From: an uncultured Clostridiaceae bacterium
GTDB lineage: Bacteria; Bacillota; Limnochordia; Darwinibacteriales; Darwinibacteriaceae
DNA length: 64,000 bases
Direction of reading: 5' to 3'
NCBI GenBank assembly: GCA_964626065.1
Contig: CAZVDE010000004.1
Span: 110 to 64,109 of the forward strand
The position numbers and the translations under genes are program-made. Positions 41,548 to 43,199 of this stretch are shown in pieces (positions within the stretch are counted from its first letter, which is position 1; each line of letters opens with the position of its first letter). The notes beneath the pieces were generated by a model, which saw nothing but the letters and a program-made list of their open reading frames with translations, did not search any database and had not been told where the DNA came from.

Positions 41548-42318
41548 TTAACCGCCTCCGTCAATTGCCAAAAGAACGTAATTCACCATCTTTGCAATAA
41601 AGGCGGAATTCGTGGGTTTACCCCTGTCTTCGCGCACCTCATAGGGAAATAAACGGTATAACTCTTCTAGGTTGCCCTTCTCCCAGGTGGCGTCCAAAGC
41701 ATAGCGCATCGCCCGTTCCACCTGAACCCCTCCCGTGGCAAAACGCTGCCCAATAGCGGGGTACAGTTTTTTAGTCACAGCATTCAGCCAGCGGGGGTAA
41801 GTGATAGCCAGCCATACGCCCTCCATAAGGTAGCGGTAGCCTTTATAGTGCGGCGGTATACCCATCGAATCGAAATACTCACGGCAGATTTCCTGCACCT
41901 GCTCCCTCGATACTTCCGGCCGCACCTGCCTTGAGTTTACTGAACAGATCTGCTTAATACGCCGGGCCAAAAGTGCCGCACCCACCGGGCGTTGGATGTA
42001 ATAATTCGCACCCAGATCCGCCGCTTTCTGCAGGGCGCTTTCGCCGGCAGCCGGCGGAGAGATGATCACTACCGCCAGTTCATCTTCATGCCAGCGTTCG
42101 CGAATCACCTTAAGTGCGCCAAGGCCACCCCTCGGCTTAAGATCGAGGCCGAGCAATACAAGATGGGGCCTAGTATCTGCAATCACTTGCAGAATGTGGT
42201 TTGCGCTGTCAAGGGCTCCCAAATAGTAAAGATCTTCTTGGCCTTGAATAAATTCACTCACTTCGTCCTTAAACCTGCGGTCGCAATCCGCCTGCAGCAC
42301 CCGGATAACCTCTGTCAT
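41548..42318 (-). CDS. spo0A: sporulation master regulator Spo0A (receiver residues atypical)
   Basis: The C-terminal Spo0A-specific DNA-binding domain is clear: HYKGYRYLMEGV...TKKLYPAIGQRFATGGVQVERAMRYALDATWEKGN...KPTNSAFIAKM. The receiver domain is present but reads ADCDRRF where Spo0A normally has ADDN, and the K-position reads YYIQRP. Confidence 0.85.
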   Translation of the reverse strand: MTEVIRVLQADCDRRFKDEVSEFIQGQEDLYYLGALDSANHILQVIADTRPHLVLLGLDLKPRGGLGALKVIRERWHEDELAVVIISPPAAGESALQKAADLGANYYIQRPVGAALLARRIKQICSVNSRQVRPEVSREQVQEICREYFDSMGIPPHYKGYRYLMEGVWLAITYPRWLNAVTKKLYPAIGQRFATGGVQVERAMRYALDATWEKGNLEELYRLFPYEVREDRGKPTNSAFIAKMVNYVLLAIDGGG

Positions 42319-43199
42319 CGCTTCCCTCCTGCCCCCCCGACCCTTCCCGCCAAAAGATAGGTCTTTGTTATTGGCGAGTACTGGAATTCTTTTTCCAGCC
42401 GGAAACGTTTTATCTTACCGGTTGAAGAAAGATGCAGCCGCGGGCCGCTGCATTTCCACTGTTCGTCGCCAATCAGGATGGTATGATCATTGTAATAGCT
42501 AATGGGCAAGTCCTTCTCGATGTATTCCAGTACTCTTCGTTCCACTTCCCCTAGATCCACTTTTGGCTTTTCACGAAATTCCACAACAAATCCGCGCCGC
42601 ACATCACTGTGAATCGTAGGCGGCTTCAGGCCCATTTCATCAAAAACAGCGGAGGTAATGTCTTCCGCACTGTGGGCCATTTTACGATAAATGAGGGAAT
42701 CAAAAGCCTGTTCAGCGATTTCGGAAGGAAAAGGCCCAAACAAAGTGGGCACTGTAACAACCACTTCCTCGCCGACCCCAATCAGCATCTCGGCGTTAAG
42801 ATTGAGAAGGGGGTAGAGGAGTTCAAAATGCTCAACAACAACTCTATGCCCCGCCGAAACTGCTTTGGTCACCGCATCGGCCAGCTCCCAAAGGGGTGAA
42901 AAAGCCATCTCGAAGCGAACATCCAGGTGGTAAGTGTGGGTCCGAAAATAATTGTTTTCTGCATCTTCCAAAACGGGTAAGGGGCGGACGTTCACTCCAT
43001 CATCATCGTTGGTCAGAACTAAACCGGGAAACATACCGCGAATGAGCAGTGATTTTCCCGCCCCCGCATCACCAACCACCCCAATCAGGCGATTTTGCGC
43101 TCCCAAATAACGCTGGGAAATAAGCATTCCCAGGTGCATCAGTCTTTGCCCGCCTCGGGGCGCATAGTAAACCGCCTGAACCAAGGTGGTATAGTGCAT
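42315..43199 (-). CDS. P-loop protein with HprK-C-like Walker A; function unknown
   Basis: 294 aa. IGVVGDAGAGKSLLIRGMFPGLVLTNDDDGVNV parallels the HPr-kinase GDSGxGKSE...L(I/V)ADD arrangement. There is no NKxD motif. The stop overlaps the spo0A ATG (ATGA). Confidence 0.6.
   Translation of the reverse strand: MHYTTLVQAVYYAPRGGQRLMHLGMLISQRYLGAQNRLIGVVGDAGAGKSLLIRGMFPGLVLTNDDDGVNVRPLPVLEDAENNYFRTHTYHLDVRFEMAFSPLWELADAVTKAVSAGHRVVVEHFELLYPLLNLNAEMLIGVGEEVVVTVPTLFGPFPSEIAEQAFDSLIYRKMAHSAEDITSAVFDEMGLKPPTIHSDVRRGFVVEFREKPKVDLGEVERRVLEYIEKDLPISYYNDHTILIGDEQWKCSGPRLHLSSTGKIKRFRLEKEFQYSPITKTYLLAGRVGGAGGKR

Follow-up and report, generated by a model that had tools for sequence, protein, structure and literature searches.

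Gene clusters for the methylaspartate pathway have been described (Kronen and Berg 2015, PMC4682846), and the published descriptions consulted here do not name the terminal gene considered below. Two other described systems are close by fold to the protein considered below: TsaE/YjeE/YdiB (PF02367), the single-domain ATPase that acts with TsaB-TsaD in the threonylcarbamoyladenosine (t6A) modification of tRNA, and the editing domains of ThrRS (N2) and AlaRS together with AlaX (PF07973). We analysed a stretch of 64,000 nucleotides (nt) from an uncultured Clostridiaceae bacterium (contig CAZVDE010000004.1, positions 110 to 64,109), hereafter the window, to which all positions refer. It carries a methylaspartate-pathway island whose terminal gene, an open reading frame (ORF) of 294 residues with an ATG start at 42315..43199 on the minus strand, encodes a two-domain protein and runs directly into spo0A. 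The joint explanation that best accounts for the data, and that we consider probable on balance, is that this target gene represents a TsaE-like/editing-like family conserved in anaerobic Firmicutes, that it closes the cluster, and that spo0A is transcribed by read-through from it.

The N-terminal domain of the target protein (residues ~1-150, 42750..43199, minus strand) is predicted to have a TsaE/YjeE-like P-loop fold. It holds the Walker A motif GDAGAGKS (residues 43-50, nt 43050-43073), the stretch LTNDDD (residues 62-67, hence T63-N-D-D-D) 11 residues past the Walker A serine, YHLDVRF (90-96) and a Walker-B-like VVVEH (120-124). The last two correspond to the TsaE motifs YHxDxYR and hhhhEW. 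The C-terminal domain (residues ~155-288, 42336..42737, minus strand) is predicted to have the ThrRS/AlaRS editing-domain fold (tRNA_SAD/AlaX) and shows invariant HSAED (176-180) and CSGPRLH (250-256) where HxxxH and CxxxH are expected. With CSGPRLH followed by TGKIKRFRL, these motifs are the counterparts of HxxxH and C(R)GPH/CGGTH...TGDIGxFKI in ThrRS and AlaRS. H197, D199, R172 and R254 are further invariant residues of the family. From the family alignment, AlphaFold2 gave a confident model (predicted local distance difference test, pLDDT, 87.3; predicted template modelling score, pTM, 0.79) that Foldseek matched to 9iuw, 1htw, 6n9a_E, 6nak_D, 3kew and 5mvr, and both the TsaE fold and the editing-domain fold were recovered in these fold searches.

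Pfam and NCBIfam at default thresholds gave no match for the target protein. Against the sequences of solved structures, both the protein and the family profile retrieved nothing beyond generic P-loop matches (E>=0.09). When 33 diverse family members were searched one by one against Pfam at E<=10, weak TsaE matches appeared in 30 of them (residues ~23-97) and weak tRNA_SAD (PF07973) matches in 21 (residues ~245-283, best E 8.5e-4). The TsaE-like motifs YHxDx[YR][RF] and hhhEH are found in 30/33 and 33/33 members, and the editing-like motifs H[ST]Ax[HD] and CxG..H in all 33, as is G..G.GK[ST], a motif generic to P-loop proteins. Judging from motifs and model, the target is a TsaE-like ATPase domain fused to an editing-domain-like domain, distant kin of both families and reaching the curated threshold of neither. 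It shares the fold of TsaE and scores below the gathering threshold of that family; whereas TsaE is single-domain and goes with TsaB-TsaD, the target family has two domains in ~290-320 residues and a metabolic context, its neighbours over 90 loci being glm/mal/cml, rph or spo0A and never tsaB or tsaD. It also lacks the SPT motif of TsaE. Likewise, it shares the fold of the ThrRS, AlaRS and AlaX editing domains below their Pfam threshold, and differs from them by its additional N-terminal ATPase domain.

A preliminary description of this DNA, made from the letters alone, had delimited the same ORF with a stop codon overlapping the spo0A start, and had noted GDAGAGKS followed about 10 residues later by LTNDDD; both observations are borne out by the sequence. 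Since the two motifs are invariant or nearly so in the 33 aligned members, they are not due to chance. Its reading of the protein as HprK-like rather than a GTPase holds for the second half: the protein has a P-loop and is not a GTPase, the G4 motif NKxD occurring in 1/33 members, but kinship to HPr kinase/phosphorylase (HprK/P) is not found. Hpr_kinase_C (PF07475) gave no match at E<=10 in the 33 members, nor at E<=1 in 10 members, and the HprK/P signature E[IVL]RG[LIVM]G is present in none of the 33. The fold searches did not assign to the target the phosphoenolpyruvate carboxykinase (PEPCK)-like P-loop fold of the HprK/P C-terminal domain, and neither fold-match list contains an HprK/P, PEPCK or G3E/MeaB chain, the families that had been proposed for comparison. 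The likeness of the P-loop region to HprK is real, yet it is not kinship: the target is a local look-alike of the HprK/P C-terminal domain, with GDxGxGKS and a hydrophobic-x-[AT]-[DN]-D strand ~11-12 residues on. Membership of the MeaB/G3E GTPases was also rejected, the G3E fold being absent among the best matches and NKxD nearly absent from the family. Like the MeaB/G3E chaperones, the target is a P-loop NTPase encoded with a coenzyme-B12-dependent carbon-skeleton mutase, so that an analogy of role is possible; unlike them, it is without NKxD and has another domain architecture.

The family is large. We found 3183 homologues at E<=1e-3, with relatives in at least 596 species-representative genomes, and some of them bear the NCBI label 'alanine-tRNA synthetase second additional domain-containing protein'. 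It is also compact and highly conserved, with a mean column identity of 61% over the 33 diverse members. When 1.8 billion cluster representatives were searched with phmmer without filters, the best 150 hits were members of the family or fragments of them, with no bridge to another family. For the gene neighbourhoods, 22 reference proteins were mapped by tblastn on 90 loci and 80 species-level loci were tallied, 58 of which have at least 6 kb of upstream sequence and 72 of which served for the downstream tally. Genes of the glm/mal/cml set lie directly upstream on the same strand in 42/58 loci, glmE in 40/58. The remaining 16 are mostly of the Desulfosporosinus or Desulfitobacterium type, with the order methyltransferase, membrane acyltransferase, target, rph. 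Downstream of the target, 41 of the 72 loci have rph-rdgB(-ysnB), 15 have spo0A and 16 have neither. The cluster lies upstream in all 14 'neither' loci whose upstream sequence is long enough, and the gene after the target varies there. The 15 spo0A loci are exactly those of the relatives whose target is at least 63% identical to the window protein.

Clusters of the form glmS-mutL-glmE-mal-cmlAB end with the target across Clostridia and in Treponema. Carboxydothermus has gerM-murI-glmS-mutL-glmE-...-target-rph; no rph comes after the target, which closes the cluster, in Treponema, Christensenellaceae, Oscillospiraceae and Petroclostridium. Where the cluster sits elsewhere (Treponema, Christensenellaceae, Oscillospiraceae and the clade of the window), the target accompanies it. 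Within the near clade its identity is 79.7%, against 77-89% for the pathway enzymes, which is the same evolutionary pace. Since it accompanies the cluster at every site and evolves at the pace of the pathway enzymes, we conclude that the target is an accessory member of the methylaspartate-pathway cluster and not a Spo0A-specific factor; its adjacency to spo0A is a by-product of the position of the cluster in one lineage. Rudimentary gerM-(DUF5698/DUF2179)-murI-glmE-target-rph clusters also occur (L056, 5948-10924; also L051 and L072), in which GlmE is full-length (668 bits), glmS, mutL and mal are absent nearby, and GlmE and the target persist together. Tandem target paralogues were seen on the metagenomic contigs L091 (2-1600), L092 and L093 (54-1144), with identities to the window protein of 52% and 36%, or 54% and 43%. 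The most divergent members (P0142 and P0126) lie on contigs too short for context, on which tandem paralogues alone are visible.

In the window, the gene order is xseA, ispA, OLE RNA, dxs, tlyA, nadK, argR, recN, spoIVB, the island, spo0A and steA, followed further on by dapB, dpaA, dpaB, asd, dapG and dapA, which is the usual Firmicute order apart from the insertion. The gene for SpoIVB (50301..51689, minus strand; PF05580, 254.7 bits), the usual upstream neighbour of spo0A, was recognised also by its synteny with recN-argR-nadK-tlyA-dxs. Between spoIVB and spo0A lie eight genes, all on the minus strand. The glutamate mutase block (46980..50259), assigned through PF02310, PF13941, PF06368 and TIGR01503 (738 bits), comprises glmS (49849-50259), mutL/glmL (48438-49844; PF13941) and glmE (46980-48437). 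It is followed by an AtuA-family gene (45612-46976) and a DUF4387 gene (45313-45615), which match the citramalate lyase subunits CmlA and CmlB of PDB 9erq/9evf with E 6.3e-155 and E 1.3e-22, respectively. Then come methylaspartate ammonia-lyase (44052..45308; TIGR01502, 557 bits), a class I fumarase alpha gene, putatively that of mesaconase alpha (43200..44042; PF05681, 388 bits; NF004885, 413 bits), and finally the target, which was rightly described beforehand as the last gene of a glutamate-mutase island.

This CmlAB enzyme, from Raoultella planticola, was used in a 2026 preprint to split citramalate into pyruvate and acetate (10.64898/2026.01.16.699985). With the AtuA-family and DUF4387 proteins identified as CmlAB, the island therefore has the full methylaspartate pathway, mesaconase beta excepted, and the target is therefore its sole gene without an assigned role. 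No gene for a mesaconase beta subunit (Fumerase_C) was found by tblastn within the 64-kb window. The target was considered as a substitute for this subunit and rejected, since alpha and beta fumarase genes stand together beside the target in L044, L063, L083 and L088. The island shares the glmS, mutL, glmE, mal, mesaconase alpha and cmlAB array with the published clusters (PMC4682846; CmlAB 9erq/9evf); it differs from them by its place between spoIVB and spo0A and by the absence of the mesaconase beta gene.

The junction with spo0A is tight. On the plus strand, 42315-42318 reads 'tcat', i.e. ATGA on the minus strand, so that the TGA of the target (42317-42315) overlaps the ATG of spo0A (42318-42316). 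A Shine-Dalgarno sequence, AGGAGG, at 42330-42325 stands 6 nt before this ATG, within the last codons of the target; the whole junction thus occupies 42315..42330 on the minus strand. At its other end, the target ATG directly adjoins the TAA of the fumarase/mesaconase alpha gene (43202-43200), with zero gap. A sequencing or assembly error, envisaged beforehand as a possible source of the overlap, is excluded because four independent assemblies (two from NCBI, two from Logan) have the same protein and the same junction. Overlaps of 4 nt at an ATGA are common in operons, and this island has a second one, between cmlA and cmlB (45612-45615). In all 16 distinct clade members compared, the target and spo0A either overlap by up to 28 nt (4 nt in the window, 23-28 nt in L026 and L027) or are separated by a gap of 2 to ~20 nt that holds just the Shine-Dalgarno sequence. 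Therefore, the claim that spo0A has no intergenic region of its own is true across the clade. The exact ATGA overlap is, judging from these relatives, specific to the window species: their target proteins finish at ...AGRVG and a stop a few codons earlier, that stop is missing in the window, and the C-terminal tail GAGGKR of the window protein is encoded by what is the spo0A ribosome-binding region of the relatives. The overlap would then be recent, the target having lost its stop and its frame having been extended into the spo0A ribosome-binding site.

Every junction from glmS to spo0A measures at most 13 nt, against 41 nt between spoIVB and glmS and 74 nt between spo0A and steA. With the whole cluster placed between spoIVB and spo0A, spo0A comes ninth in a tightly packed array of cistrons, and most likely it is transcribed by read-through from the island. 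The preliminary description had proposed to map spo0A transcription start sites and 0A boxes within the 3' end of the target. A sigma-70 scan of the coding strand and our own pattern scan for sigma-A- and sigma-H-like promoters detected none inside the target gene of the window; three weak sigma-A-like matches, with one shared position, in the L023, L025 and L027 relatives are explained by the codons of Y-[HY]-D. There is no 0A box (TGNCGAA) within 42319-43199, and the number of boxes over the window equals chance. No synonymous-site constraint was found in the target, the identity profile being flat at 0.29-0.47 (0.38 for the gene overall), like those of mal and fumA. Rfam turned up neither a riboswitch nor a leader within the island or near it. 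Because the junctions are tight and the target shows no promoter, 0A box or synonymous constraint, we infer that spo0A probably shares a transcript with the distal island genes at least, which is the simplest reading. A terminator-like hairpin inside the target (42453-42432) was judged not significant: it is made of the codons of the invariant CSGPRLH, it is not palindromic in relatives, and counts of such hairpins are near shuffle expectation.

Another terminator-like hairpin, a strong one with a 12-bp stem and T9, lies at 50335-50375 (minus strand), within the last ~25 codons of spoIVB and 75 nt upstream of glmS. It may stop the transcription of spoIVB, in which case the island promoter would fall within ~75 nt.

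The Spo0A encoded in the window (41548..42318, minus strand, 256 residues) is an orthologue, as indicated by Spo0A_C (PF08769, 107.5 bits) and the recN-spoIVB-...-spo0A synteny. Its receiver domain is weakly matched. Its DNA-binding domain matches 1fc3 and 1lq1 (E ~2e-21), and the protein scores 168 bits against TIGR02875, under the equivalog cutoff of 200. The canonical receiver active site (D10, D11, D56 and Lys) is not preserved: in a gapless HMMER alignment with B. subtilis Spo0A (9phz_E), D10 is retained, D11 is Cys, the phospho-acceptor D56 is Gly and the conserved Lys is Arg. Of 5.8 billion proteins, only 55 match this Spo0A at E<=1e-10; nearly all of these have a replacement at D11, most have Arg for the Lys, and ~20 have G, S, C, A, E or N at D56. 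Over the relatives compared (L008-L027 and P0271-P0325), the one lineage to retain the canonical set is the most distant of those that share the gene order (L025-L027). Within the clade, mean identity is 39% for the receiver and 70% for the DNA-binding domain, and Spo0A is the fastest-evolving gene of the array (50.6% identity vs 66-89% for its neighbours). This suggests, from sequence comparison, that the Spo0A of the clade has become independent of aspartate phosphorylation. Among the relatives, one bears the label 'Candidatus Darwinibac...', and the paper describing the order of that name (formerly MBA03) makes no mention of sporulation or methylaspartate (PMC12663870).

As to the activity of the target protein, the invariant P-loop, H176, D180, C250 and H256 argue, as conserved positions, for catalysis or tight metal binding over a scaffold role. 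We tentatively propose, as one possibility among several and one that may well prove wrong, that the editing-like C-terminal domain would hydrolyse an aminoacyl ester and that the TsaE-like domain would gate or reset this hydrolase activity through ATP hydrolysis. The most economical substrate would be a tRNA mischarged with threo-3-methylaspartate, the non-proteinogenic intermediate of the pathway, which is an analogue of aspartate and, at its beta carbon, of threonine. Relatives of both domains act on tRNA-linked substrates, and rph follows the target in 41/72 loci; such proofreading would account for both domain ancestries, for the operon membership and for the frequent rph neighbour.

Several observations weigh against this reading, from the domain assignment onwards. 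The best TsaE score of any member is 20.5 bits (E 4.9e-4) and that of the window protein 11.9 bits, against a gathering score of 26.6; the best tRNA_SAD score is 18.4 bits, against 24. Compared with AlaX, HxxxH has Asp in place of its second His, and 5 instead of 3 residues separate the Cys from the His. The family is acidic (mean isoelectric point 5.6, net charge ~-10), which is unexpected for a tRNA binder, and we know of no trans-editing protein that needs an ATPase domain. In the Desulfosporosinus-type loci (16/58) the target stands beside rph with mutase genes absent within 10 kb, and some clusters are without methylaspartase (L007, and L056, which has glmE alone); these cases leave a strict link to 3-methylaspartate unproven. 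Literature searches with the NCBI product name, with DUF4387, with spo0A and glutamate mutase, and with methylaspartate and trans-editing yielded nothing, and no literature on the target family was found. Finally, for read-through into spo0A, consensus promoter scans are weak evidence of absence, and an unconventional internal spo0A promoter is possible.

The constancy of glmE as a neighbour (upstream in 40/58 loci, more than any other gene, and kept in the rudimentary murI-glmE-target-rph clusters) would also fit a maintenance or chaperone ATPase for the coenzyme-B12-dependent glutamate mutase, either an analogue of MeaB or a TsaE-like partner of an ASKHA-fold MutL. ATP hydrolysis would then drive loading or release of the cofactor, with a metal or the corrinoid bound at the His/Asp/Cys/His site. 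To our knowledge, glutamate mutase has no P-loop chaperone, while related mutases have MeaB. TsaE acts on an ASKHA-fold partner, TsaD, and MutL (PF13941) is ASKHA-like. Enterobacterial clusters have another P-loop B12 accessory gene, cobA, in the analogous slot (PMC4682846). Against a servicing role stand the best fold matches, none of which is a G3E/MeaB or adenosyltransferase structure, and the lack of NKxD; clostridial glutamate mutase is active in vitro from GlmE, GlmS and adenosylcobalamin alone; the target is moreover present without mutL in the L063 and L071 clusters, Desulfosporosinus-type loci have no nearby glm genes, and the conserved editing-domain motifs are left unexplained. We therefore regard this servicing role as unlikely. 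In another reading, the target would be a general tRNA or nucleotide quality-control factor of the rph-rdgB-ysnB group, the glm cluster would have been inserted between murI and the target, and their adjacency would be historical. The tRNA-related homologues of both domains agree with this, as do the 41 species loci with rph directly after the target, 16 of which have no pathway genes upstream, and the Methyltransf_3 (PF01596) methyltransferase that precedes the target in Desulfosporosinus and Desulfitobacterium. This explanation is nevertheless improbable: wherever the glm cluster lies away from murI and rph, the target stays with the cluster and not with rph (14/14 'neither' loci and the 15 spo0A loci), cluster and target appear to have been transferred together to Treponema (L083 and L088), and the target is, to judge from B. 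subtilis, absent from Bacillus-type gerM-racE-rph regions.

The preliminary description had suggested that a kinase-type protein, translationally coupled to spo0A, may feed metabolic information into the expression or phosphorylation of Spo0A. The overlap at ATGA and the absent intergenic region are real and the junction is tight clade-wide; loss of the canonical phosphorylation pocket would call for some other control of Spo0A. Furthermore, B. subtilis YdiB/TsaE (5np9, 5mvr), the nearest P-loop relative, has been reported, though this is disputed, to have protein kinase activity. However, neither the fold nor the motifs match HprK, and 57 of the 72 loci have rph or another gene downstream, i.e. 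at least 57 species loci of the family have no adjoining spo0A. In the spo0A-linked clade the target has not changed faster, being no more diverged than the pathway enzymes; the L025-L027 lineages have the same gene order and keep a canonical Spo0A receiver; the exact overlap is species-specific, and the strong Shine-Dalgarno sequence permits independent initiation. An input into Spo0A phosphorylation is weakened further because the window Spo0A has Gly at the phospho-acceptor position, and a dedicated link of this kind is, in our opinion, highly improbable. A broader scenario, to which we give little credence, would join both parts of the locus: in this anaerobic-digester lineage, Spo0A would have lost its own promoter as well as a receiver that can be phosphorylated, and spo0A would have become the last cistron of a glutamate-fermentation operon, translationally coupled in the window species to the TsaE/AlaX-like gene. 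Its dosage would then be set by amino-acid catabolism instead of a phosphorelay, and the two-domain protein could be recruited as a partner.

With CmlAB assigned, the target is the one gene of the methylaspartate cluster that is strongly conserved across hundreds of anaerobes and has no assigned role. The fusion of an ATPase of the t6A-machinery type to an aminoacyl-tRNA editing fold is not described in the literature searched. If 3-methylaspartyl-tRNA is indeed proofread, a catabolic operon would have its own translational quality control; if the protein services glutamate mutase, the missing P-loop chaperone role of a B12 enzyme would be filled. Moreover, a Spo0A with a kept DNA-binding domain and a decayed phosphorylation pocket, encoded in a metabolic operon, bears on the evolution or loss of sporulation control in uncultured Firmicutes.

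The window has other features of interest. A TsaD/Kae1-family paralogue of 320 residues (61032-61994, minus strand; PF00814, 80 bits) is located upstream of xseA, 18 kb from the target, and no evidence of a link between the two was found. A 408-residue ORF (31587-32813, minus strand) without a Pfam match lies between a dUTPase_2 gene and the dapB-dpaAB region and is called as a gene in related contigs. A T-box leader (RF00230, 111.7 bits; 9962-10175, minus strand) is found at the 5' end of a 991-residue ORF (7143-10118). Beside the OLE RNA, a 189-residue ORF (57416-57985) has no Pfam match. The OLE (Ornate Large Extremophilic) RNA itself (RF01071) is full-length, scores 461 bits and lies at 58001-58656 on the minus strand, between ispA (58711-59604) and dxs (55532-57412).

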